A DNA stretch of 64,000 nt from Candidatus Melainabacteria bacterium 17Bon1m (GTDB taxonomy: Bacteria; Cyanobacteriota; Vampirovibrionia; Obscuribacterales; Obscuribacteraceae), in NCBI GenBank assembly GCA_032128875.1, contig JAVLKG010000011.1, positions 96,001 through 160,000 on the forward strand, read 5' to 3'. Shown one piece after another: positions 18,247 through 31,218 of the stretch. Both the position numbers and the translations under genes were made by a program. Under the pieces are notes generated by a model. It was not told the DNA's origin, searched no databases, and saw nothing but the letters and a program-made list of their open reading frames with translations. Within the stretch, counting starts at the first letter, position 1, and each line of letters starts with the position of its first letter.

Positions 18247-19797
18247 ATGACCTCATCTACAAAGAGCCCAGAGAGCGCGCCTTCGAAGGCTGGCTCTCCG
18301 CGCACCTATCACAACTACATCGATGGTAAGTGGGTAAAGGCAGAAACAGGCGAAACCTTCGCTAGCTACAACCCGGCTAACTTGACCGAAGTAATCGGTC
18401 ACTTCGCATCATCGACTCCTAATGACGTGAAAGCTGCTGTTGATGCTGCTCAAAAAGCACTCTACGGCTGGCGTCATACTCCAGCTCCTGCACGTGCCGA
18501 CATTATTTTGAAAGCCGCATACTTGCTGGAAAGCCGCAAAGAAGAAATCGCAACCACAATGGTTCGCGAAATGGGCAAAGTGCTCAAAGAAGCTCGTGGC
18601 GACGTTCAAGAAGCGATCGACATGGCTAAGTACATGGCTGGCGAAGGACGCCGCTTGATGGGTCAAACGGTTCCATCCGAAATGCCCAACAAGTTCGCAA
18701 TGGCAATCAGACAGCCGATCGGCGTTGTCGGTTTGATCACTCCATGGAATTTCCCAGTCGCAATTCCTTCGTGGAAGATGTTCCCCGCACTCGTTGCCGG
18801 CAACACCGTTGTTTTCAAACCCGCAACCGATACGCCACTTTGCGCATTAATGTTGGTTGAAGTTCTCATCGAAGCAGGACTCCCGCCGGGCGTTCTCAAT
18901 TTTGTCACCGGCATGGGCGCTAAAGTTGGTATGGCTCTCGTCGACGATCCTCGTGTCAAAGCTATCTCTCTAACCGGCTCGACCGAAGTTGGTCGTCGCG
19001 TCGCAGGACGTTGCGGCGAATTGATGAAGAAAGTCAGCTGCGAATTGGGCGGCAAAAACGCAATCTGCGTTATGCCGGATGCCGATATCGAGTTGGCTGT
19101 AGAAGGCGCTGTCTGGGGAGCTTTCGGCACTGCCGGACAACGTTGTACAGCAGCCAGTCGCTTAATCGTTCACAGTGATGTCTACAAGAAATTCACTGAT
19201 GCATTTGTTGCTCGCACCAAAGAACTCAAGCTCGGTTTTGGTCTCGATCAAGACGTCACCGTTGGACCTGTCGTAAACAAGAGCCAATTGGAAAGCATCA
19301 ACGAATACGTTCAAATCGGCAAGAAAGAAGGCGCCAAGCTGCTTTGCGGTGGCAACATCGTGACTGAAGGCGAACTCAAGAATGGTTGCTTCCACGAGCC
19401 CACCGTATTTGGTGATGTAAAACCAACCATGCGTATTGCTCAAGAAGAAATCTTCGGACCTGTGACTGCAATCATCAAAGTCGACAGCTTCGAAGAAGCA
19501 ATCGAAGTAGCCAACGGCACTGAATTCGGTCTCTCGCTCTCGATGTACACACGTGACGTTCACCAAGCCTTCAAAGCAATTGAAGAATTGGAGTCCGGCA
19601 TTGTCTACATCAACGCTCCTACCATCGGCGCTGAAATTCAGTTGCCATTCGGTGGCGTCAAGCAAACCGGTAACGGTCACCGCGAAGCAGGCACCACTGC
19701 TATCGAACAATTCACCGAGTGGAAAGCTATCTACATCGACTACTCCGGTCAATTGCAAAAAGCACAGATCGACAATCATCCGACCAAGAAGAAGTAG
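18247..19797 (+). CDS. NAD(P)-dependent aldehyde (semialdehyde) dehydrogenase
   Basis: PWNFP, LTGSTEVG, ELGGKN, GQRCTA, EEIFGP. Confidence 0.92.
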   Translation: MTSSTKSPESAPSKAGSPRTYHNYIDGKWVKAETGETFASYNPANLTEVIGHFASSTPNDVKAAVDAAQKALYGWRHTPAPARADIILKAAYLLESRKEEIATTMVREMGKVLKEARGDVQEAIDMAKYMAGEGRRLMGQTVPSEMPNKFAMAIRQPIGVVGLITPWNFPVAIPSWKMFPALVAGNTVVFKPATDTPLCALMLVEVLIEAGLPPGVLNFVTGMGAKVGMALVDDPRVKAISLTGSTEVGRRVAGRCGELMKKVSCELGGKNAICVMPDADIELAVEGAVWGAFGTAGQRCTAASRLIVHSDVYKKFTDAFVARTKELKLGFGLDQDVTVGPVVNKSQLESINEYVQIGKKEGAKLLCGGNIVTEGELKNGCFHEPTVFGDVKPTMRIAQEEIFGPVTAIIKVDSFEEAIEVANGTEFGLSLSMYTRDVHQAFKAIEELESGIVYINAPTIGAEIQLPFGGVKQTGNGHREAGTTAIEQFTEWKAIYIDYSGQLQKAQIDNHPTKKK

Positions 19798-19806
19798 TTA
19801 GAAGTG

Positions 19807-19840
19807 AAACTCTCGCCCGGGATGTCTCGGGCGAGAGTTT
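19807..19840 (+). terminator. Long intercistronic hairpin (partial terminator or mRNA stabiliser)
   Basis: AAACTCTCGCCCGGGA-TG-TCTCGGGCGAGAGTTT, 16-bp stem with one G-U. Confidence 0.6.
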
Positions 19841-19927
19841 CTAAAACTAGATTTGAAACAGAATCTGCCCAGCCCAAGCGGCTTTTACTTACAAAGCAAA
19901 ACTAAATAGAAACGCGGAGAATAGGAT

Positions 19928-21127
19928 ATGGATTTCGACTTTACACCAGAGCAAATCGCTTATCGCAAGCACATGCGCGAATTCATGGAGCGCGAAGTTG
20001 CACCGGTTGCTCAGATGAACGATCGCGAATGCAAATTCGACATGAATGTCGCCAAGAAAATCTTCAAGGAAGGTTTTCTCGGTTGCCCAGTGCCGGAAAA
20101 GTACGGCGGTCTTGGAATGGACTACATCGCATACGGCTTGATGACTGAAGAAGTTAACCGCGTATGCTCATCGACCAGAACTCTCTTCTCCGTGCAAACT
20201 TCACTGGTTGCTTTGACAATCTTGAAGTGGGGCAACGAAGAGCAGAAAAAAGAATTGCTGCCCAAACTCTGCAACGGCGAATACATTGGTTGCTACGGTT
20301 TGACTGAGCCAGAAGCAGGCTCTGATGCCGGTAACCAACAAACCCGCGCAGTCAAAGATGGCAACGACTACATCTTGACCGGACAAAAGGTTTGGATCTC
20401 TTGCGGAACTATCGCATCACATGCGCTCATTTTTGCAACTGTTGATCCAAAGCTCGGTCACAAAGGCATCAGCTGCTTCATCGTTGACACCAAGTCGAAA
20501 GGCTTCTCGGCTGCAGCGATCAAAGGCAAACTCGGCCTGCGTTCTTCCGATACTGCTACCCTCTACCTCGATCAAGTTCGCGTACCGAAAGAAAACATGC
20601 TCGGTGCTGAAGGCGACGGCTTCAAAGTTGCAATGTCAGCACTCGATAACGGTCGCTTCTCGGTAGCCGCTGGTGCTGTCGGTCTTGTCCAAGGCTGCAT
20701 AGACGAGTCTACCAAGTACGCAATGCAAAGAAAGACTTTCGGCAAACCGATTGGCGAACACCAACAAGTTCAAGCCATGATTGCTGACATGGTTGCTGAT
20801 TGCGAAGCAGGCCGCTTGCTCTATTTGAGAGCTGCTCACCTGAAGAACAAGAACGTCCGCAACACGCTCGAAACCTCCCTCGCCAAGCTCTTCTGCGGCG
20901 AAGCAGCTAACAAAGCAGCTCACAACGCAGTACAGATCTTTGGTGGCTACGGCTTCTCCGATGAGTATCCGGTTGAGCGTTTCTTCCGTGACGCCAAAGT
21001 GCTCAACATCTACGAAGGCACCCGCGAAATCCAGCGCTTGATCATTGCTCAAGACGCACTCGGCATTCGCAACGCCAACGGAGCTCCAACCGGTCGCATG
21101 ACCGAATTGGCCGGCGTAGGCGTGTAA
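19928..21127 (+). CDS. Acyl-CoA dehydrogenase, glutaryl-CoA dehydrogenase-like
   Basis: GCYGLTEPEAGSD, QIFGGYGF, IYEGT; RVCSSTRTLFSVQTSLV resembles the GCDH RVDSGYRSAMSVQSSLV segment. Confidence 0.85.
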   Translation: MDFDFTPEQIAYRKHMREFMEREVAPVAQMNDRECKFDMNVAKKIFKEGFLGCPVPEKYGGLGMDYIAYGLMTEEVNRVCSSTRTLFSVQTSLVALTILKWGNEEQKKELLPKLCNGEYIGCYGLTEPEAGSDAGNQQTRAVKDGNDYILTGQKVWISCGTIASHALIFATVDPKLGHKGISCFIVDTKSKGFSAAAIKGKLGLRSSDTATLYLDQVRVPKENMLGAEGDGFKVAMSALDNGRFSVAAGAVGLVQGCIDESTKYAMQRKTFGKPIGEHQQVQAMIADMVADCEAGRLLYLRAAHLKNKNVRNTLETSLAKLFCGEAANKAAHNAVQIFGGYGFSDEYPVERFFRDAKVLNIYEGTREIQRLIIAQDALGIRNANGAPTGRMTELAGVGV

Positions 21128-21174
21128 GAAAACCTATTGGCGTTGCGTTGCATCGTCAGTAAGCCAAAGAATTG

Positions 21175-21204
21175 GAGGGGTATGCAATAGCATGCCCCTC
21201 TTTT
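21175..21204 (+). terminator. Rho-independent terminator of the catabolic operon
   Basis: GAGGGGTATGC-AATA-GCATGCCCCTC-TTTT. Confidence 0.8.
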
Positions 21205-21436
21205 GCTAAACCCAGATCTAAAGCGTTGTTTTGGCTCTTTTGACTATCTAAAATATAAGAAACTGTTAAGCCCCGAGAAGGGCAAGACATCGTGTAGAAG
21301 TTCACGGGCTCAGTTTACAAAGCCCCGTTCTTAACCGGTCCTTAAACGGAGCGGGATTAGGATGGAACCATTGCACTGTATGGAAGCCATACGGTCGAGT
21401 GTCAAAAGTAATAGCAAGCCAATAAAACGGTAGGTT

Positions 21437-21547
21437 ATGGGATATCTTGAAGGTTTAGTCGTTTGTGTAGTTGCAGCCGTTGCCGCCATGTGGGTCAACG
21501 ATACGCTCCCGGTTGGGGGCGAGTACATCCAAGACGAGACCCTGTAG
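21437..21547 (+). CDS. Putative 36-aa single-TM small protein (not in ORF track)
   Basis: MGYLEGLVVCVVAAVAAMWVNDTLPVGGEYIQDETL, preceded by GGTAGGTT. Confidence 0.45.
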   Translation: MGYLEGLVVCVVAAVAAMWVNDTLPVGGEYIQDETL

Positions 21548-21795
21548 TCAAAAGTCAAAACAATTTTGGGGACTACGTATTTTCCCCACTAGACATGTTC
21601 GGTTTCAGTCGTATGATTGACCCTTGTCAAGGGATGCCCCCACGCACCTGAGACTTTCCACTTGCGCAACCCAAGCTCTACAAGCCCCCAAAAGGGGCAG
21701 GTTCGAGCTGCAAGTTTTCGCTTCACCCTTTCTAAAACCAAACGTCTGAGCCGGCATGCGCCGTCTAATTCGTTTACATAAAAATCGCGACGACT

Positions 21796-21978
21796 ATGGA
21801 GTCGTATGCGGAGGGTGATGTGTTGCTGAATTACTTACTAGCAGAGTTTGAAAAACGCCCGAGTCATTCTGTTGACTCGATGTATTTGACGCACTGCAAG
21901 CGTTCGATACATCAATTGCAGCTATTTTTGAAATGGGCGCAATCGCACGCTGCCAGAGGGATACCGCGATTGTCATAA
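21796..21978 (+). CDS. Putative 60-aa helical hypothetical protein
   Basis: Amphipathic, protein-like sequence; lies directly upstream of the EF-hand cluster; weak RBS. Confidence 0.4.
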   Translation: MESYAEGDVLLNYLLAEFEKRPSHSVDSMYLTHCKRSIHQLQLFLKWAQSHAARGIPRLS

Positions 21979-22060
21979 TTTTGTCACCAGGGCCTGAGTA
22001 GTATCTCGGGACCCCCCGGTACACACCGTTCCTAAACTTACTAGAGGCAATGAAGTTCAT

Positions 22061-25000
22061 ATGCCAGCAGATTCTATTGGCGAAATTACCAATGTTCAAA
22101 ACCCGGTCGTAAAAGATGCGAGTGAAAAAGCCCTCGCTGATGCCGGAAAAAACGGCGCGCTAAACGCACAAGCATACGTTGAGAAGAACTCCCAACAACT
22201 GCGCCAAGCGGGCGTTTTGCCCGAACTGGCAATCGACGGCGCCAGCGAAATCTCCTATGTGCAGAAGAACTTCGACAAGGTCGACCAATCGAGAGACGGT
22301 CATGTCAGCGCTGATGAGATCGACCAATACGTCAGAGAAAACGGCGCCAATCTGAAGCCGGACGAGCTTGAATCACTGAGAAAAGTCAAAGAGAAGATCA
22401 GTAAATTAGAGGACCTCAGCAATGACGAGCTCGGTTTTGAAAACGATGGTGTAACCAAGAAAGATCTTGATGAAGCACAAAAGCGCTTCAAAGCTTTGGA
22501 CTTTGCAGAAAAGAATTTCGACAAGCTAGACGTGGACGCAGATGGCTACATCGGCTCAAGCGATATTGATGGATACATCCGAGCGCAAGGCGCCAAGCTA
22601 GATCCCAAGGAAGCCGAACAACTAGATTACCTTAAGAAGAACATCGATGACCTGGAAGAATACAGCAACGATGAGTTAGGTGATGAAAACGATGGTATCA
22701 CCAGACACGATCTTATCGCTGCGAAGCAGGAAGACGGCACGGATCAAATGAAGGCCGGTCGGCCGGTGTGCAGCACTGAGGCGACCGTTGCAACTGAAGA
22801 TTTGCGACCGGCTCTAGCTTATGCTCAGAAGAATTTCGACAAGCTTGACGGCGATAAAGACGGTTATATTACCGTGGGCGAAATCGATAAGTACATGGAG
22901 GCAAACAAAGCCTCAGTCTCAGCTGAAGACCTAGCTAATTTAAGAGCTTTGAAGGCGAAAGTTGGCGATGTCGAAGAGCTTAGTAATGATGAAGTTGGTG
23001 ATGAGAATGATGGCATTACCAAGAAAGACATTGTTATGTCCAAAGAGCGCATTGATGCTCTGGCTTATGGCAAGGGAAATTTCGACAAGCTGGACGGCAA
23101 TGGCGACGGTCATGTAACAGCTGAAGACATTGATGCCTACATCAAAGCCCGCGGTGACGTTTCACCAGAAGAGAAAAAGAATCTCGAGTATCTAAAAAAG
23201 GAAATTGACGATCTGCAGGGATATCACAATGATGAGTGGGGCTTTGAAAACGATGGCTTCACTAAAGGGGATCTTGCGGACGCACTGAGCGAACTTGGTT
23301 CTGGCTCCGCGCGCGGCGATCTTCAAAAGCCTTGTCCAGCAGGGGAAAACCAGGCTCAACCGGGCGATAAGCCTGCAAATTCTGGTGATAAACCTGCAAA
23401 TGGTGACAAACCTGTTCAACCAAGTGAGAAGCCTGCCGAAACTATCTATGAAGTGAAGAAGGGCGACACGCTCTGGAAGATTTCCAAAGAGCAATTGCGC
23501 GAAGCCAGTGGCGGCAAAGAGCCAACGAACAGCGAGATTGCGAAGAAGGTCGGTGAGCTTGCTAAAAATAACGGCATTACCAATCCGGACAGAATTTATC
23601 CCGGACAAAAGATCAAACTGCCGGGCAAACCGGAAGTGCAGGCTCAAAATCCAGATAACGGAAAGCCGGAAGGCAAGCCTGAAAACAAGCAAGAAGGTAA
23701 GCCGGAAACCCAGCCGGAATCGCAAGCTGCGACGCCTGAAGACAAAGGCGCAGACTCTGGTTTGGATTATGTGCGCAAACGCTTTGCCTTCATAGATCAA
23801 GATGGCGACAATCACGTTACTAAGACCGAAATCGAAAAGTACATCAAAGACAACGAGAAGTCGCTAACTTCCGGAGAAGTAACTGCGCTCAAAAGAGTAG
23901 CCAGTAAAGAAGACGATCTCGAAGAGATGTACAACGATGAGCTCGCAGACGAGAATGACGGCATAACGCGTCAGGACATCAATGTCGCTGAAGAGCGCAT
24001 GAAAGCGATTGAGTTTGGTCAGAAAAATTTCGACAAACTCGACAGTAATGGAGATGGCTACGTAAATGCTGATGAGGTCGAAGGTTATGTCCGCGCCAAC
24101 AGCGACAGACTGAATGCTCAGGATCGAGCCAATCTAGACTATCTCAAAAAGGAAGTCGGCGATCTCGAAGATTACAGCAACGATGAGTTGGGCTTTGAAA
24201 ATGACGGCTTCACTAAAGCTGATTTGAAGGGTGCTCTTGCTGAAGTTGGCTCCAACACAGTCGGCACCGAAGGGCAGATGGAAAAACTTCCCACCCTTCC
24301 AAAAGTTCAACCTGCTTATGACAGCCAAACTGAAAAGGTAAAGACCGAAGACTTCACAAAAGAGAGCCTGCGTCTCTTCGATAAACTTGACAAAGACAGC
24401 GACGGATATCTGAGTGAAAGTGAGCTGGCGACAGCAGTTCAGAGTGAAGAGTATAAGGGGCGAGACGCCCAGGTAGTAGCTGCGCTCTATAAAGCTCAAG
24501 ACGATATAGAAGAACTGAGTAATGATGAGTTAGGCGATGAAAACGACGGAATTACAAAAGCGGACCTGACAAAACTAGAGGAGGTTAGGCAAAACAACCA
24601 GAAGGAACTTGAGCAAACGGCAAGGGCCAGAGCGTTTTTAGACAAGGATGATAATTTCAAAAAAATCGATTCTGACGGCGACACCTTCCTTACTAAGTCC
24701 GAAATTTCTAAAGCACTCGAAAGACAAGACCTCACTCCCGAGGAGCGCGTCAGCCTGGAGTTCTTAAGAGACCACGTCAGCGATATCGAAGAATCTCACA
24801 ACGATGAGACCGGCGACGAGAACGACGGTATCACGAGAAAAGACCTCGATTACTACGGCGACGACACCATGGCCTCTATTTCCAATACGCTTTGGAGAAC
24901 CAATGAAGCTCAAAGATCCGGAACGCGATTGCTCTACGGAGATCTTTTGAACCCGCTGGAAAGTATCAAGCCTGATGCGATTAAGCAAGGCATGATTGGC

Positions 25001-25663
25001 GACTGCTATTTTGAATCAGCTGTTGCTTCCTTGGCTGCAACCGATCCGGAATCCATTAAGAAAATGATCAAGGATAACGGAGATGGAACCTACACCGTCA
25101 CTTTCCCTGGCGCGACGGACGAGCCTATTACCGTTAAAGCTCCGACCGAGGCCGAAATGGGTCTATACAATCAAGGAGGCAAAGACGGCTCATGGGCTTG
25201 CGTTCTTGAAAAAGCCTATGGCGCGTATTGCCAAAATCATTTTTTCAGCCGCTCACCATTCAATATGGGCGGAGGGAATACTGAGGCCGAAGGTAGCGAC
25301 GGCGGCGAGTTTTTCCATGGCAGAGCGATGTCTCTTTTGACCGGCCGCGGTCGCGACAACGATAATCTCACATTCTCATCGGAAGCTGAAATCGCCAAAA
25401 AGTTGGACGCAGCACTTAACCATTCACCAAAGCGTCCTGTCCTGGCCGGTATCAACAACAGCTTTTTCTCCGATGAGACTGGAGACGGTTTTCCTGATGC
25501 TCACGTATACAGTGTGATTGGATTCGATCCCAGCGGACCGGATGGAGGCACTGTCACCATTCGCAACCCGTGGGGAGACGGCGACAACACTACCAGAGGA
25601 ACCATCAAAATCAGCGTCAAGAAATTCAGAGCTAATTTCAGCGAGGCTGTTTATTCGGAATAA
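22061..25663 (+). CDS. EF-hand repeat / LysM / calpain-like (peptidase C2) cysteine protease, 1200 aa, no signal peptide
   Basis: 8 units of FDKLDxDxDGY...NDELGxENDGITKxD; LysM YEVKKGDTLWKI...IYPGQKIKLP; triad QGMIGDCYF, DAHVYSV, IRNPWG; plus LEKAYG. Confidence 0.88.
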   Translation: MPADSIGEITNVQNPVVKDASEKALADAGKNGALNAQAYVEKNSQQLRQAGVLPELAIDGASEISYVQKNFDKVDQSRDGHVSADEIDQYVRENGANLKPDELESLRKVKEKISKLEDLSNDELGFENDGVTKKDLDEAQKRFKALDFAEKNFDKLDVDADGYIGSSDIDGYIRAQGAKLDPKEAEQLDYLKKNIDDLEEYSNDELGDENDGITRHDLIAAKQEDGTDQMKAGRPVCSTEATVATEDLRPALAYAQKNFDKLDGDKDGYITVGEIDKYMEANKASVSAEDLANLRALKAKVGDVEELSNDEVGDENDGITKKDIVMSKERIDALAYGKGNFDKLDGNGDGHVTAEDIDAYIKARGDVSPEEKKNLEYLKKEIDDLQGYHNDEWGFENDGFTKGDLADALSELGSGSARGDLQKPCPAGENQAQPGDKPANSGDKPANGDKPVQPSEKPAETIYEVKKGDTLWKISKEQLREASGGKEPTNSEIAKKVGELAKNNGITNPDRIYPGQKIKLPGKPEVQAQNPDNGKPEGKPENKQEGKPETQPESQAATPEDKGADSGLDYVRKRFAFIDQDGDNHVTKTEIEKYIKDNEKSLTSGEVTALKRVASKEDDLEEMYNDELADENDGITRQDINVAEERMKAIEFGQKNFDKLDSNGDGYVNADEVEGYVRANSDRLNAQDRANLDYLKKEVGDLEDYSNDELGFENDGFTKADLKGALAEVGSNTVGTEGQMEKLPTLPKVQPAYDSQTEKVKTEDFTKESLRLFDKLDKDSDGYLSESELATAVQSEEYKGRDAQVVAALYKAQDDIEELSNDELGDENDGITKADLTKLEEVRQNNQKELEQTARARAFLDKDDNFKKIDSDGDTFLTKSEISKALERQDLTPEERVSLEFLRDHVSDIEESHNDETGDENDGITRKDLDYYGDDTMASISNTLWRTNEAQRSGTRLLYGDLLNPLESIKPDAIKQGMIGDCYFESAVASLAATDPESIKKMIKDNGDGTYTVTFPGATDEPITVKAPTEAEMGLYNQGGKDGSWACVLEKAYGAYCQNHFFSRSPFNMGGGNTEAEGSDGGEFFHGRAMSLLTGRGRDNDNLTFSSEAEIAKKLDAALNHSPKRPVLAGINNSFFSDETGDGFPDAHVYSVIGFDPSGPDGGTVTIRNPWGDGDNTTRGTIKISVKKFRANFSEAVYSE

Positions 25664-25719
25664 AAAAAATTTGTAACCCAGTTTTTAGATGACGCCGATT
25701 ATTCTCAGACTACGGAGCA

Positions 25720-26550
25720 ATGCAACAAATGTCCGACAACGCAGATACAAAAATCGCCAAGCAAGTTGCCAAAACACAAGATGCGCCGCCAGATGTCGAC
25801 GCTTCGGCCGTCTTGAGCGAGCACATGTACAAATTTGTCTACGGACCGAGCCCGCATATGGCAGAAGCCGTAAATCAGTTGAACACTCAGTCCGCCGGCA
25901 TGGCAAGAAATGCGGCGACTCTTTCTACTATTGATAGAGAAAGCAGCAGCGTCAAAGACTGCATGCAAAATAACGCCTTGAGGGGCGCGGAATTGGGACA
26001 GAGAAAGGTTGTAGAACTGGCTAGTCAGCTTGATCTTGGTGCTATCTCTGCAGCTATCGCAGGCAACATTGCTAAAGGGGGAAGTGATTCTCTGGTCAAC
26101 GTTCTTAAATTCGCCGGAGCTACTCCACTGGTTGAGCGGGTCCGTTTGGGCGCAATTCAAATGCGCCAGAGCCAAGAAACAGACGCAGAGAAAACGTTTG
26201 AAGGCGCCTTTAAAGCTGACATCGCAAGAGAATCAAGGGAGCTGCCGGAGGTTGTCCAACTCAAAAGGGCGGCACAAAAGATGTTTGAAGAACTCAAACT
26301 GAGGCGCACATTGCCCGAGGTTTTTGACGACAACCTTACCCTCATCGACACGATGGTGAAGGATGGAGCTCTGACAAAAGAAGAGTTGGCGCTTTCCAAA
26401 AAATCTGCCGTAAAAGATGGAATGACTCAAACCTTAATCGAGTATCTATTGAAGAATTTCGATCAAGTAAAAAACGGCGACAACTCCATTAGCCGGCAGG
26501 ACGTTGTTGCTTATCAGAGAAAGGTTCAACTGAAAGGATTGCCTCACTAG
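25720..26550 (+). CDS. Hypothetical helical protein with C-terminal degenerate EF-hand-like unit
   Basis: IDTMVKDGALTKEEL...YLLKNFDQVKNGDNSISRQDV resembles the repeat unit of its neighbours. Confidence 0.7.
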   Translation: MQQMSDNADTKIAKQVAKTQDAPPDVDASAVLSEHMYKFVYGPSPHMAEAVNQLNTQSAGMARNAATLSTIDRESSSVKDCMQNNALRGAELGQRKVVELASQLDLGAISAAIAGNIAKGGSDSLVNVLKFAGATPLVERVRLGAIQMRQSQETDAEKTFEGAFKADIARESRELPEVVQLKRAAQKMFEELKLRRTLPEVFDDNLTLIDTMVKDGALTKEELALSKKSAVKDGMTQTLIEYLLKNFDQVKNGDNSISRQDVVAYQRKVQLKGLPH

Positions 26551-26829
26551 AGAGCCCTTTCTGGCGACTCCGTTTGTATATGTACAGGTAGTTAGGGTAG
26601 AACTCGAAAACTTTCAAAATTGGGTCGTCTTTGGCTGCCCTCTAAACCCAAGAGCCCCGGTGTGGTTGGCTTTTGGGTTTTCAAGATTTTTTAAAACTTG
26701 CGCCCGTATTCTAAGAGCGTTCCTCCCCCCAAGCACACAACCAGCAAGCAAGCATTGAAGGACCGTTCAGGACTCAATGTGCGCCGAAAGTCGTCCTTCC
26801 CCGCTACTAACAAAATTGAGGCAAACAAA

Positions 26830-28497
26830 ATGGCCCCCATCAAACCTGAAGCATTGGAAGCAAAAACACCCGAAGATAACAAACCGGTACTTTCCGTTCA
26901 AATCGGTGATGGTGACAACAAACAGCTCCTTTCCTTCAATCGTAGCCAAGCCGATCAACTGAAATCTGCCGGCATTCTTCCGGAATTGTCTATTAGCGGC
27001 GGCACCGAACTCGATTATGTTCGCAACAATTTCGACAAGCTGGACAAATCCAAAGATGGACATGTGACAAAGCAAGAGATTGAAGACTACATCAAGACCA
27101 ATAAAGAGCTCTCTAAGCAAGAAGTGGATGCACTTACCAAAACAGCAGCCAATATCAATAAGCTCGAAAACAACAATAGAGATGCAGAGTTTATTACTGT
27201 AGACACAGGCGGTGGAGCGTATGGTCCTGAAGGTGGACTCACGAAGAAAGATGTTGAGGTCTCCAATCAACGTTTGAAAGCTGAAGAATACGCCAACAAG
27301 AATTTCGACAAGTTTGACAAAGACAATGACGGTCATGTAAACGCTGATGAACTCAATGCTTACATGAAGGCGAATGAAGGCAAGTTGAGCAAAGAAGAAC
27401 TTGCCAATCTTCAAACTCTAGTTAAGGACATGGAGCGCCTCCAAAGTTCTGCGAATGACGAATTGTTCATTGAGAATGATGGATTCACTCAAAGAGACTT
27501 GAAGGTTGCTCGCAACGAAGATGGTACTGCAGGTATGAAGATCGCTGATGGCAGCTTCAAGTTCAAGAAGGAAGAAGCGCCCGAATCCAGGACCGGCGAA
27601 GTTCCCGGTCAAAAACCAGAGCCTGGTAAGAAAGCCGGCGATAACTCTTCAACCGGTGACCATGAGTATGTGATCAAGTCCGGCGACTCATTCTGGAAAA
27701 TCGCGAAGGACAATTTGAGAGCACAAAACGGAAAAGATCCGTCCAATGCAGAAGTAGTCAAAGCGATGAATGAATTGGCCAAAGCCAATGGAATGAAGCT
27801 TACTGACACGATTCATCCGGGGCAAAAGTTGAAAGTGCCCGGTCCGGACAAGGGTGAATCTATGCCTGCAAACGGTGAGAAACGCGCACCAGCTCCACGT
27901 CGCGCAGAACCAGTAATGCCTACACGCAAAGGCGAACCAGCACCAACCGAACCTGAAAAAACTGAGCCTCTAGCTCCCAAGCCTGAAGCTAAAGCTCCAG
28001 AATCCGCATCACAAGTGCTTCAACGCCGCTTCAGCGAAATTGATAAAGATGGCAATAATAAAGTAACCAAGAAAGAAATCGATAAGTATTTGAACGATCA
28101 CGCAAAAGATCTTTCCGCCGAAGAAGTAAGAGCACTCGATATTATGGCTAGAAACGAAAACAAGATTCGCACGCTCGTTGACGATGAGAAAGGTCCGGAA
28201 AACAGCGGTATGTCCCGCAAGGATTTGCAGAAGCTCGATCAGGTTCAAAAGATCGGCAATGGCATGCTGGCCACCGGTATGTTCAATGAACTCGACGGCA
28301 ATCACAATAAGTTCCTCAGCAAGGAAGAGATCACCAAGGCACTGACGACAAGAAATCTCACGCAGCAAGAGCGCGTCACCCTGGAGTTTCTCAAAGACAA
28401 TCTGAAGATTCTTCAAACCGGTGTGGACGATGAGCGCGGAGCGGAAAACAACGGTGTATCGCAAGCCGATTTAAGATACTTCGCATCACTCAAGTAA
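26830..28497 (+). CDS. EF-hand repeat / LysM protein, paralogue of the 22061 gene without the protease domain
   Basis: GAGG RBS before ATG 26830; 4 repeat units; LysM YVIKSGDSFWKIA...IHPGQKLKVP; Pro-rich linker. Confidence 0.85.
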   Translation: MAPIKPEALEAKTPEDNKPVLSVQIGDGDNKQLLSFNRSQADQLKSAGILPELSISGGTELDYVRNNFDKLDKSKDGHVTKQEIEDYIKTNKELSKQEVDALTKTAANINKLENNNRDAEFITVDTGGGAYGPEGGLTKKDVEVSNQRLKAEEYANKNFDKFDKDNDGHVNADELNAYMKANEGKLSKEELANLQTLVKDMERLQSSANDELFIENDGFTQRDLKVARNEDGTAGMKIADGSFKFKKEEAPESRTGEVPGQKPEPGKKAGDNSSTGDHEYVIKSGDSFWKIAKDNLRAQNGKDPSNAEVVKAMNELAKANGMKLTDTIHPGQKLKVPGPDKGESMPANGEKRAPAPRRAEPVMPTRKGEPAPTEPEKTEPLAPKPEAKAPESASQVLQRRFSEIDKDGNNKVTKKEIDKYLNDHAKDLSAEEVRALDIMARNENKIRTLVDDEKGPENSGMSRKDLQKLDQVQKIGNGMLATGMFNELDGNHNKFLSKEEITKALTTRNLTQQERVTLEFLKDNLKILQTGVDDERGAENNGVSQADLRYFASLK

Positions 28498-28561
28498 TTA
28501 AGAAAAAAAACAAAGCAGAAAGATTCAGGATCAAAACCAAGACAGACACCGCTTAACCAAA

Positions 28562-28600
28562 AGAAGGAGGAGCTACCAGCGCTTCTCCTTCTATTTTATT
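28562..28600. terminator. Probable bidirectional terminator
   Basis: AGAAGGAGGAGC...GCTTCTCCTTCT flanked by A and T runs, between convergent genes. Confidence 0.6.
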
Positions 28601-28636
28601 TCTCTGTTTGCGACAACAGAAACTTGTTCAACTCTC

Positions 28637-29281
28637 TCAGTCGTCGTTATATCCGACTTCAGTGCTATGAGCGAATCTACGTCTTTCACCCTCAACGGAT
28701 TTAATTGCCTTCAGGCAAGATATCGGGGGACGAAACTCAAAGGCGGAAACGTCTTTATGCAGAGGTTCTGGCAAACACTCATTGATGTAATCAATACCGC
28801 TGAAATCTTTGAAGCCAAGCTTGTGCACTTTCCATCTGCGCAGTCGCATGGGCGCATCTTCTTCCCATGTGGCCCAGAGCCACTTGCGAAAGAGTGCTTT
28901 AAAAATTGGCTCAAACATCTTAAAGATTGGATGCGTGATGATGTTGTACGTCGCAGTAATGCGGCAACGCTCACCAGGGAGATCTTCAAACAGAACTTCC
29001 ATCTCGAGCAAAAAACCGAGCTGATCCTGGTGGAATGTCTTCATTACATTCCCTTCCATGTATTGAAGCGCCATACCTCCGCTCCAAAATGGAAGAAACG
29101 GCATTTTTTTACCGCGATAAACAAGCGCCCAGTCATCTCTCTGCGCGAGCACCCGAGCATGGTCATAGAGCTTATAATGCGTGCCAACAAGATGCTCGTG
29201 GTCATAGTAATTCCACATTACTATTTCTTTTGGGCAATCCATTTCGGCCCGGCACGTGACGCTAAGATTTACTGTTTTCAT
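28637..29281 (-). CDS. Stand-alone Rieske-oxygenase-like catalytic (SRPBCC fold) domain
   Basis: NYYDHEHLVGTH (N-x2-D-x2-H-x4-H) and late WEEDAPM carboxylate motif; start ATG 29281 chosen. Confidence 0.65.
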   Translation of the reverse strand: MKTVNLSVTCRAEMDCPKEIVMWNYYDHEHLVGTHYKLYDHARVLAQRDDWALVYRGKKMPFLPFWSGGMALQYMEGNVMKTFHQDQLGFLLEMEVLFEDLPGERCRITATYNIITHPIFKMFEPIFKALFRKWLWATWEEDAPMRLRRWKVHKLGFKDFSGIDYINECLPEPLHKDVSAFEFRPPISCLKAIKSVEGERRRFAHSTEVGYNDD

Positions 29282-29294
29282 CTTCACTTCATCT

Positions 29295-29678
29295 TCACAG
29301 CAAATCAATGTAGATCTTCTGGTCGCGAATGTGCAGAGAATACTCTCTCAACGGAAGGTTTGAGTTGGTCAAACACGCACCGCTGCTGCAATCGTATTCC
29401 CAGTTGTGCCACAAGCAAGTAAACTTGCCGCCTTTCGCTTGGTGATATCCGACGGGGCCGCCAAAGTGCCTGCAAATGTTGCTGATCGCTTTTACTTTAC
29501 CTTCGAAAATATAGAGCAGTATGTCGTGCCCCTCAATCCACTTTGTTAGCTGTCCATGCTTCGAAAGTTCGCTCATGGATGCAAGAAAAGGGCAGACGCG
29601 CTGTTGCCCTAACTCGGAGATAACTATCTCGTCGCGTTCTTCGTTTGAGACGTCATTTTTGACTAACGAATTGGTCAT
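29295..29678 (-). CDS. Rieske [2Fe-2S] domain protein
   Basis: NICRHFGGPV...FTCLWHNWEYD. Confidence 0.9.
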   Translation of the reverse strand: MTNSLVKNDVSNEERDEIVISELGQQRVCPFLASMSELSKHGQLTKWIEGHDILLYIFEGKVKAISNICRHFGGPVGYHQAKGGKFTCLWHNWEYDCSSGACLTNSNLPLREYSLHIRDQKIYIDLL

Positions 29679-29781
29679 TTGTCGGTTAGCCGTAAGATCC
29701 GGTGAGGGCTACTACTTGAGACTCCGTAACCATTGTACGGACGGGGGATTGCATAATCATTAAAGAAAAGAAACGATTGTC

Positions 29782-29946
29782 ATGAGTAAGTTGCATGTTG
29801 AGTCTGCGAAACCCGAAAGGGCCCCCATTTTTTGGTCCTTCTTGACCCTTTTCATTGGCCAATTGAAACTAATTTCACGCGGTACTAAAACGGTCATGAC
29901 TTTCTTAATAGACTTAAGCGGACGTTCATTGAATCTCAAGGTCTGA
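29782..29946 (+). CDS. Possible 54-aa hypothetical protein
   Basis: MSKLHVESAKPERAPIFWSFLTLFIGQLKLISRGTKTVMTFLIDLSGRSLNLKV; purine-rich upstream sequence; fills an otherwise empty gap. Confidence 0.3.
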   Translation: MSKLHVESAKPERAPIFWSFLTLFIGQLKLISRGTKTVMTFLIDLSGRSLNLKV

Positions 29947-30017
29947 AATGCTGTCGCGGTTAGGTTGCATGCAGTATGTGCGTTCGATGTCGTAGCGTAT
30001 CTTGATCCGAAATACTT

Positions 30018-30227
30018 TTGCACACAACTAGTTTTGGATTCTCTTTGGCAAGAAGAGAGGCACCGAATATGGTGCTGTTGGCAGTAGCTTCGCTCTGTCT
30101 GCTGTACACGTACACGTTCTTTCTTCGACCGAGCGCTGTTAGGTCGTCAGGTGGAAAGATCAGGGAATTCGACAGCGTCAAGAGCGTAGAATATGCACCT
30201 CCACGTCAGCTCGGCGCGGGAAGTTGA
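30018..30227 (+). CDS. Possible small single-TM protein (start may be ATG 30069 after AGAGG)
   Basis: VLLAVASLCLLYTYTFFL hydrophobic segment. Confidence 0.45.
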   Translation: MHTTSFGFSLARREAPNMVLLAVASLCLLYTYTFFLRPSAVRSSGGKIREFDSVKSVEYAPPRQLGAGS

Positions 30228-30272
30228 CGTGTCGTCAAATAGTTATTGTTCCTCTGGAACCAAGGAGTTTAA

Positions 30273-30479
30273 ATGTCAGGCGTATATAAAATGGTCGAAA
30301 TCGTTGGCACTTCATCGGTCAGCTTTGCAGAAGCTACCAAAGAAGCTGTTAAGCGTGCTGCTAAAACCATCCGTCACATGGGTTGGTTCGAAGTAGTCGA
30401 ACAACGCGGCGCCATCAAAGATGGCACAGTTTCTGAATTTCAAGTCAAATTGAAAGTCGGATTCAAGCTGGACGAGTAA
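30273..30479 (+). CDS. Dodecin (flavin-binding protein)
   Basis: VYKMVEIVGTS...WFEVVEQRG...FQVKLKVGFKL; AAGGAG RBS. Confidence 0.93.
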   Translation: MSGVYKMVEIVGTSSVSFAEATKEAVKRAAKTIRHMGWFEVVEQRGAIKDGTVSEFQVKLKVGFKLDE

Positions 30480-30573
30480 TTTCTCGTACCGGAAATAACA
30501 ACTGAAAAGGGGGGCCACAGGGCTCCCCTTCTAGTTAGAGTGCTTTGGAACGATTTCGGAGCGCATCTTGTGC

Positions 30574-31218
30574 TTATGTTCCGAAAATACGATCGCCTGC
30601 ATCGCCCAAGCCTGGCACGATGTAGCCGTGTTCGTTCAAATTGTCATCAAGCGCAGCCGTGGTGATTCTGACGTTTGGAAATTGCTCGTGTACGCGCTTT
30701 ACACCCTCCGGCGCGGCAACTATAGAGACCAAGTGAATGGTTTGAACATTCAATTTGTCGAAAAGGTTAATGGCAGCGCATGCCGAGCCACCAGTTGCCA
30801 GCATTGGATCGAGAACGAAGACGCGGCTTTCGTTGGGGAGGGCTTCCGGCAGTTTTGCATAATAAGAAATCGCCTTCAGCGTCTCTTCATCGCGGCGCAG
30901 ACCGATGTGATAGATGCGGGCGTTGGCGAAAAGCTCTTGTGCTGCTTCTGCCAGGATGAGCCCAGCTCTCAAAACCGGTGCAAAGACCACATAATCGCTA
31001 AGAGCTACACCCTTTGCCGGTCCAATTGGCGTCTCGACGCCCACTTCACGGACGCCCAGTTCACGCATAGCTTCGTAAACCAGGAAATAGCTGAGCTGTC
31101 TGGCTTTCTCGCGAAATTCGCCCGACGGCGTCTGGTAGTCGCGCAGCCTGGTCAAAATATTCCTCGTTAGAGGATGATTTACGATCGTGAGTTTTGACGT
31201 GTCCGTGCCAGTAACCAT
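30574..31218 (-). CDS. upp: Uracil phosphoribosyltransferase
   Basis: PVLRAG, VLDPMLATGGS, YIVPGLGDAGDR. Confidence 0.96.
   Translation of the reverse strand: MVTGTDTSKLTIVNHPLTRNILTRLRDYQTPSGEFREKARQLSYFLVYEAMRELGVREVGVETPIGPAKGVALSDYVVFAPVLRAGLILAEAAQELFANARIYHIGLRRDEETLKAISYYAKLPEALPNESRVFVLDPMLATGGSACAAINLFDKLNVQTIHLVSIVAAPEGVKRVHEQFPNVRITTAALDDNLNEHGYIVPGLGDAGDRIFGT

Follow-up and report, generated by a model that had tools for sequence, protein, structure and literature searches.

The 64,000-nt window analysed here, positions 96,001 to 160,000 of contig 11 (JAVLKG010000011.1) in the 7.55-Mb, 93% complete genome of Candidatus Melainabacteria bacterium 17Bon1m (GCA_032128875.1; order Obscuribacterales), contains at 22061-28497 (window coordinates throughout) three same-strand (+) open reading frames (ORFs), here called g1, g2 and g3, exactly as the initial annotation of this DNA had listed them. 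On the evidence of its sequence, g1 (22061..25663, +; 1200 amino acids (aa), pI 4.49, 21% Asp+Glu) encodes a real and hitherto undescribed variant of the calpain family, in which EF-hand units and a LysM domain precede a C2 protease domain. The cluster is not unique: the family's common core appears to be two EF-hand-pair units followed by C2, and g1, which adds six units and LysM to this core, would be the most elaborate member of an EF-hand+C2 expansion spanning the Obscuribacterales. Its neighbours are g2 (25720..26550, +), a 276-aa orphan with a helical, TPR-like N-domain and one degenerate EF-hand-pair unit, and g3 (26830..28497, +), a 555-aa protease-less paralogue of g1.

The Peptidase_C2 (calpain-type) domain of g1 (24959..25660, +) is recognised by Pfam, by its predicted fold and by its conserved residues. 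The Pfam match (PF00648, residues 967-1174) scores 38.4 bits against a cut-off of 23.8. The catalytic triad reported by the initial annotation proved exact (Cys982 at 25004, His1148 at 25502, Asn1169 at 25565), and these residues, together with the oxyanion-hole Gln976 (24986), are invariant in 10/10 and 12/12 relatives in two alignments. From 12 aligned sequences, AlphaFold gave a model of residues 750-1200 (pLDDT 82.7, pTM 0.79) whose C-terminal part matches the cores of calpain-1, -3, -8 and -9 (Foldseek E 2e-9 to 1e-7, prob 1.0), with a TM-score of ~0.55 by target length and ~19% identity; the sequence profile matches calpain chains in the PDB at E 6e-7 (HMMER). Taken together, the score, the conserved residues and the calpain-core fold of the model place the g1 protease in peptidase family C2.

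The EF-hand part of g1 consists of units 1-4 (22247..23302, +; residues 63-414) and units 5-8 (23759..24868, +; residues 567-936), as located by motif scan and unit alignment, and EF-hand families match the protein at E 3e-29 (Pfam). Units 7-8 lie directly before the protease, as in shorter family members. Between the two arrays is the LysM domain (23447..23623, +; residues 463-521; E 9e-11), with Pro/Lys/Glu-rich linkers, read from the translation, on either side; at 42 bits in g1 and 37.2 bits in g3 (residues 324-381 of the long g3 ORF) against the PF01476 cut-off of 20.9, both segments qualify by sequence as LysM family members. The layouts proposed by the initial annotation (four units, LysM, four units in g1; two units, LysM, two units in g3), as well as its Peptidase_C2, LysM and EF-hand calls, are thus borne out by Pfam matches above cut-offs, by motif scan and by unit alignment. 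Each unit spans ~80 aa and comprises a canonical 12-residue EF loop and, ~45 residues on, a second, very conserved acidic loop of 14 residues (NDE.G.ENDG.T..D). Mean identity among the 12 units of g1 and g3 is 35.6% (range 21-54%). A dockerin-like nature of the units was considered and rejected, as there is no Pfam dockerin match and the two loops are spaced as in an EF-hand pair.

The canonical loop, with ligands at positions 1, 3, 5 and 12, fits in 8/8 loops of g1 and 4/4 of g3. Among 12 orthologues (g1 and 11 others, 68% identical to g1 overall), which retain the 8-unit layout, these four positions of the eight g1 loops are ligand-compatible in 382 of 384 cells, and the second loop hardly varies in its ENDG core. 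This conservation provides strong indirect evidence that calcium binding is the property under selection in the EF units.

The resemblance of g1 to the calpains of eukaryotes (CAPN1/2 with CAPNS1; MEROPS C2) extends from the protease family, fold, Cys/His/Asn triad and oxyanion Gln to the fusion of EF-hands with the protease and to the presence of protease-less EF-hand proteins, here encoded by the neighbours of g1. It ends with the arrangement of the parts. The eukaryotic enzymes carry a C-terminal penta-EF-hand domain, which is not present in g1, where all EF-hands stand N-terminal to the protease as eight self-contained two-loop units; unlike them g1 also contains LysM, yields no calpain-III/CBSW match among those listed by Pfam at E up to 1, and is only ~19% identical in the core. 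With regard to the core calcium sites, the HMMER alignment spans only the segments around Cys and around His/Asn, and the invariant Asp972 of g1 sits one residue off the site-1 Asp of the calpain core. The chain ends 31 residues past Asn1169, which, by the residue numbering in the available part of Rawlings 2015 (PMC4631099), would not leave room for the distal half of core calcium site 2; on the same residue offsets, the stretch of calpain-2 that holds this half of the site should be missing from g1. By its N-terminal EF pairs, the missing calpain-III match and the chain end shortly after Asn, g1 is not a classical calpain, and the earlier suggestion of an independent assembly is plausible, given the N-terminal EF pairs in place of a C-terminal penta-EF-hand and the lack of a calpain-III match.

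A search with the protease domain returned 107 database clusters (660-2100 aa), of which, by manual count, 52 have EF-hand Pfam matches and 10 have LysM. The named clusters come mostly from Obscuribacterales, Melainabacteria or 'Cyanobacteria bacterium SZAS', and one EF+C2 protein was verified as coming from Vulcanimicrobiota. At the level of genomes, a C2 domain profile (E ≤1e-10) finds matches in 94 of the 107 genomes of the order (33/38 genera), mostly several in each, with copy numbers of 3-10 in genomes of 6-9 Mb. The genome under study has four such matches. Two of its paralogues (C3:157591-159207 and C5:107508-109172; ~540-555 aa) consist of two EF units and C2, and a third (C1:374011-375270) of a signal-like N-terminus, TPR and C2. 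A 699-aa paralogue on contig 2 (C2:752269-754368) aligns in part over its protease-like portion; the catalytic Cys is absent by eye, and no Pfam C2 match is found at E 0.01 or better.

Bacterial calpain homologues covered by earlier surveys, among which we take Tpr of P. gingivalis to be one, likewise have the C2 domain in a non-eukaryotic domain context, and some of them are secreted by means of signal peptides. The available part of Rawlings 2015 (PMC4631099) describes bacterial homologues as rare, single in each bacterium and in no case equipped with an EF-hand domain; here, in contrast, EF-hands precede the protease, with four matches in one genome and matches in 94/107 genomes across the order. 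Veselenyiova 2022 (PMC9380684), in the part available, treats photosynthetic cyanobacteria only and mentions neither EF-hands nor Melainabacteria. Our literature search, which left aside the supplements of these two surveys, found nothing on a calpain+EF-hand+LysM architecture and nothing linking Obscuribacter with calpain. The architecture, which the initial annotation had not recognised from any described system, is therefore absent from the literature searched, and, as judged from sequence matches and from the accessible portions of these papers, the order-wide EF+C2 expansion contradicts the published picture of bacterial calpains.

The g3 ORF is open from TTG 26698 to 28497 (599 aa). Its start is most likely ATG 26830, giving the 555-aa product, since an identical 555-aa protein exists in the database and relatives are mostly 557-591 aa long; GAGG is found 9 nt 5' of this ATG, and in-frame conservation with a relative starts only near residue 40 of the long ORF. 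The LysM segment lies at nt 27667-27840. Over 533 residues g3 is 35% identical to g1, and its units pair with individual g1 units (u3 with u5, u4 with u8), so that from these alignments g3 appears to be a protease-less derivative of a g1-like gene. The family is narrow (23 clusters), with relatives of 515-924 aa carrying 3-8 canonical loops, for instance P0186 (751 aa, L025), P0190 (924 aa) and P0193 (677 aa, partial). In locus L025, ~2.3 kb separate g2 from the part aligning with g3, a spacing in keeping with a g3 that is longer and closer to g1 in type. Contig 9 encodes another g3-like EF-LysM-EF protein (687 aa).

The product of g2 ends, as the initial annotation had noticed, in a single degenerate unit (residues 199-276, nt 26314-26547), with a mean identity to the other units of 18% and with the ligand positions lost; the only Pfam match is a sub-threshold one to EF-hand_7 (residues 214-265, E 0.0014). 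Translation probably starts at the second ATG (25729), as relatives are 272-276 aa long. The predicted structure is all-helical (pLDDT 85.7, pTM 0.81), and its C-terminal 70 residues are similar in fold to the C-domain of troponin C (prob 0.95 over 72 columns). A Foldseek search of the whole model against the PDB gave nothing at E 0.001 or better, and features from the ESM Atlas scored no higher than 0.78, which is in the chance range. For the N-domain, the VIA-align wide search gives TPR-like helical repeats at a top Z of 9.9, which is below the ~13 reached by helical models by chance and within the noise; on the model, 'helical, TPR-like' is as specific a description as we would give. There is no paralogue of g2 in its own genome and no g2-like neighbour of the contig-3 and contig-5 protease paralogues. 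Very few proteins belong to its family (23 clusters; among 1.84 billion proteins, 44 representatives at E ≤0.001), and longer matches align to the EF part only.

The position of g2 is very consistent where the gene exists. In 11/11 g2 loci it lies directly 3' of the protease gene, down to 34% identity and with other genera included; of the order's 30 best protease loci, 14 have it after the protease and 16 lack any g2-like gene. In two species of the same genus (L038 and L041), g3 comes directly after a g1 whose triad is intact; g2 is absent from the locus, and none was found in their genomes (83% and 82% complete). In the protease tree these two are sisters nested within the g2-bearing clade (100/99 support), which points to one loss of g2. 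Its loss where g1 and g3 are intact suggests that g2 is dispensable and argues against an obligate immunity or antitoxin gene. The closest counterparts of the g2 unit are unit 8 of g1 and unit 4 of g3 (LEFL.. helix); unit 8 abuts the protease, which fits a docking of g2 to g1, although we only infer such a contact. As a separate observation, EF+C2 genes of other genera (L045-L049, L052, L042) are followed, ~13-130 bp on, by small unrelated genes (126, 251, 259 and 195 aa) with signal- or transmembrane-like N-termini, which may be clade-specific partners unlike g2.

The view of the three genes as a co-conserved system held within the genus, where g3 accompanies g1 throughout and the trio occupies the same chromosomal slot in 6/6 related loci, between an acyl-CoA dehydrogenase gene upstream (where the locus extends that far) and upp/dxr downstream. 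The three do not form a fixed system: g2 has been lost in one lineage of the genus, and in three other genera (L018-L020) g3 does not adjoin g1-g2. One related locus encodes a protease domain 99% identical to that of g1. Nonsynonymous divergence (dN) from the related locus L026 is 0.15-0.18 for g1, 0.15 for g2 and 0.35 for g3, compared with 0.02-0.05 for flanking housekeeping genes, the cluster proteins thus changing 3-10 times faster. Where synonymous divergence (dS) is finite, gene-wide dN/dS (Nei-Gojobori) is 0.01-0.2, which suggests purifying selection on the cluster genes overall; for most pairs dS is saturated. In a further comparison (L022 versus the window), the acyl-CoA dehydrogenase gene has a dS of 0.27 and a dN of 0, and g1-g3 and upp have a dS of 1.4-3.0. 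This inequality within one genome pair points to different histories of flank and cluster, possibly through recombination within the genus.

The explanation that we rank first, while holding it to be somewhat short of an even chance, is that g1 is an exported, calcium-folded, wall-tethered protease of the calpain family. Its EF units would be empty and floppy at cytoplasmic calcium levels; the protein would leave the cytoplasm by a non-Sec route, whereupon the units would fold on binding calcium. The central LysM would tether g1 to peptidoglycan or another polymer of N-acetylglucosamine (GlcNAc), and the two EF units packed against the protease would couple calcium occupancy to protease competence. 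The product of g3, arisen by duplication of a g1-like gene and loss of the protease, would take up the binding sites used by g1, either as its non-catalytic partner or in competition with it. A clade-specific, dispensable accessory, g2 would combine a helical scaffold with a dead EF unit and bind g1 as regulator or chaperone. Calcium gating, wall anchoring and the pairing of a catalytic with a non-catalytic protein, all three proposed by the initial annotation, are here what we infer from the domains. Indications of an extracytoplasmic site include a LysM above cut-off, the Pro/Lys/Glu-rich linkers, the acidity of the protein, the scarcity of Cys (two isolated residues in the EF arrays of g1), fast protein evolution and the existence of plainly exported C2 paralogues (e.g. 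C1_374011).

The cluster also shares an N-terminal module with other proteins of this genome. It is a ~70-75-aa stretch, found in g1 at 22058..22270 (+; motif ..L..AG.LPEL.I) and in g3 at 26848-27030, and in a weakly conserved form (core ..L..xG.LP.Ls.) it heads at least 9-11 proteins here. Those checked show no signal-like segment, and the majority contain LysM and/or EF units; signal-less LysM/EF proteins with the module number at least nine. The other module loci are C5:337766-339325, C5:583498-584580, C3:229088-230197, C3:227831-228877, C16:24390-25985, C11:177730-178842, C2:71271-72464, C3:182292-182768 and C13:50784-51755. A profile made from 11 proteins of this genome gives 8 matches in the sister species; in other genera, 10 of 39 genomes have 1-3 weak matches. 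The module may act in targeting or assembly. The idea that it is a general export signal was rejected, since outside the genus it is hardly detectable, being either too local or too divergent. A broader proposal, which we regard as rather improbable, is that Obscuribacterales have an independent, calpain-like system of calcium-switched proteolysis, with the EF units beside C2 as the gate, g2 as a regulatory subunit (an analogue of the small subunit or of calpastatin) and the N-terminal module as the mark of an undescribed export or assembly route.

Several observations weigh against an exported, wall-tethered g1. In agreement with the initial annotation, neither a signal peptide nor a hydrophobic N-terminal or internal segment is detected by hydropathy in any of the three proteins (maximal 19-residue Kyte-Doolittle means of 0.63 for g1, 1.31 for g2 and 0.46 for g3, compared with 1.80 for a signal-like paralogue). 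The same genome, at 93% completeness, possesses three secretins and yielded no markers of the type VI (PF05943), type IV (PF03135) and type III secretion systems or flagellum (PF00771), as well as of contractile injection (PF04984) and type VII secretion (PF06013), so that no route of export is indicated. Among 107 long homologues, a signal-like N-terminus (four proteins) and the EF-unit motif (31 proteins) never coincide, a pattern that fits cytoplasmic calcium sensing at least as well as export, even though the contrast (0/31 versus 4/76) is too small for significance. As for LysM, the best NCBIfam match is of the PRK11198 type, whose E. coli member we take to be a cytoplasmic K+-binding protein, and precomputed Pfam results lack the domain in some 8-unit orthologues (P0007, P0010, P0013, P0017). 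Finally, the gene-wide dN/dS values show no sign of diversifying selection or of an arms race.

These observations lend weight to the explanation that we rank second and consider possible though doubtful, namely that g1 and its many paralogues are cytoplasmic calcium-switched proteases working in the manner of eukaryotic calpains, in which a rise in cytoplasmic calcium, by signalling or through a breach of the envelope, would load the EF units and start limited proteolysis, with g2 as an EF-bearing regulatory subunit or inhibitor. It would account for the missing signal peptides and one-step secretion markers and for the absence of signal-like N-termini from EF-unit homologues; the calcium ligands, kept in 382/384 cells, are what a sensor needs, two EF units always abut the protease, and the 3-10 copies in large genomes resemble the expansions of signalling families. 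What it explains less well is the combination of LysM with Pro/Lys/Glu-rich linkers, which is typical of wall-associated proteins, an array of 8 units and 16 loops far beyond what switching needs, and protein evolution that is fast relative to neighbouring genes. Moreover, the signal-peptide contrast on which it draws is not significant, and among PADLOC defence models only a weak match to the EF region of g1 (E 3e-6) was found, with none for g2 or g3. We consider it quite improbable that the cluster is a toxin-immunity pair, with C2 as an antibacterial or anti-eukaryote toxin head, g2 as the immunity gene and g3 as a decoy or spare delivery module. The idea draws on the place of g2 immediately 3' of the protease (56-nt gap) in every g2 locus, on its tiny, lineage-restricted family, on RHS repeats fused to C2 in four relatives (P0078, P0079, P0082, P0086), and on weak Foldseek rows (E 0.02) to a papain-like toxin/immunity pair and a CdiA-CT domain. 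However, L038 and L041 keep an intact-triad g1 and g3 without g2, and a g2-like gene is absent from 16 of the 30 best protease loci. The relatives in which RHS is fused to C2 are short proteins, and DPxGL, the motif that ends an Rhs shell, occurs in 0/6 of them. Markers of type VI or VII secretion or contractile injection were not found in the genome, and selection is purifying gene-wide. Thus, as far as the sequences indicate, neither an always-retained immunity gene nor a delivery module or apparatus of a polymorphic toxin is present.

Similarly remote, in our estimate, is a mainly structural role, in which g1 and g3 would belong to the matrix or the cell surface as wall-tethered proteins stiffened by calcium, the EF arrays acting as calcium-dependent spacers, the protease serving only self-processing or remodelling and g2 being unrelated. 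Long arrays of calcium units flanking a central LysM, a protease-less twin, the variable unit number among g3 relatives and the at least nine signal-less LysM/EF proteins with a common N-terminal module would all suit such a role. On the other hand, the catalytic residues are invariant in all relatives checked, and throughout the order the EF+C2 core persists in the absence of LysM, which argues for the protease as the function under selection; the difficulty over export is the same as for a wall-tethered protease.

Among known signal-less calcium-binding proteins, the nearest to the EF units by NCBIfam are the XopAW type III effectors (NF041410, E 2.6e-19), which are likewise acidic EF-hand-pair proteins and which, in the accessible parts of the literature found, are merely listed in effector inventories. 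Unlike g1, XopAW has neither a protease nor LysM; g1 covers the model in part only and scores 70 bits against a cut-off of 120, and its genome has no match to the type III secretion export-gate family FHIPEP. Membership in the XopAW family was rejected on these grounds (score under cut-off, no FHIPEP match). A looser likeness exists to RTX substrates of type I secretion, which are acidic and signal-less and have long calcium-repeat arrays that would be unloaded in the cytoplasm and loaded outside. They differ in that the repeats here are EF-hands rather than the GGxGxD beta-roll, and no ABC, membrane fusion protein (MFP) or TolC genes adjoin the cluster.

With regard to transcription, the sole strong + strand terminator-like hairpin within 21000-28800 (12 pairs and a T-run; 28562..28592) follows g3. 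Between g2 and g3, a 13-bp hairpin with a U-rich tract (26644..26680, +) is possibly a weak terminator (z -1.66 versus shuffles, not significant). With this arrangement, co-transcription of g1 and g2 is likely, and g3 may have its own promoter. The cluster is purine-rich (AT skew +0.20 to +0.29), as expected of acidic, Lys-rich proteins, and the long minus-strand ORFs inside it are shadows of this composition. Nothing in 20800-29000 matched Rfam at E up to 1.

The 934-bp spacer 5' of g1 contains a 36-codon ORF (21437-21547, +) for a hydrophobic peptide (MGYLEGLVVCVVAAVAAMWVN...), and a hairpin with a T-run lies at ~21170-21205, 3' of the acyl-CoA dehydrogenase gene. On the other side, two overlapping genes on the minus strand (28637-29678) adjoin the cluster, one encoding 223 aa without a Pfam match and the other 127 aa, Rieske-type by eye. 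Of the loci compared, that of the closest relative (L021) has the pair and the other four do not, which marks a variable spot beside the cluster. Three runs recorded as transcriptomic RNA-Seq (X2-X4; window 19000-31000) yielded contigs of 12-24 kb spanning both strands and spacers, from which it follows that these libraries contain genomic DNA. Sequence nearly identical to that of the window is also present in metagenomes from aquifer, drinking-water, plankton and oil-facility samples.

Among the proteases of eukaryotes, calpains are the textbook case of activation by calcium, and how they originated is under debate. In the Obscuribacterales, from the sister group of the photosynthetic cyanobacteria, genomes contain multiple C2 proteases, routinely in fusion with EF-hands. 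If calcium does gate enzymes of the g1 type, the calpain principle would have been invented a second time, independently, and they would offer a tractable bacterial model of it; if the proteins are exported, they would point to a new route for signal-less LysM proteins in Melainabacteria. Close relatives occur in aquifer, drinking-water and plankton metagenomes, so that material for metaproteomics exists.

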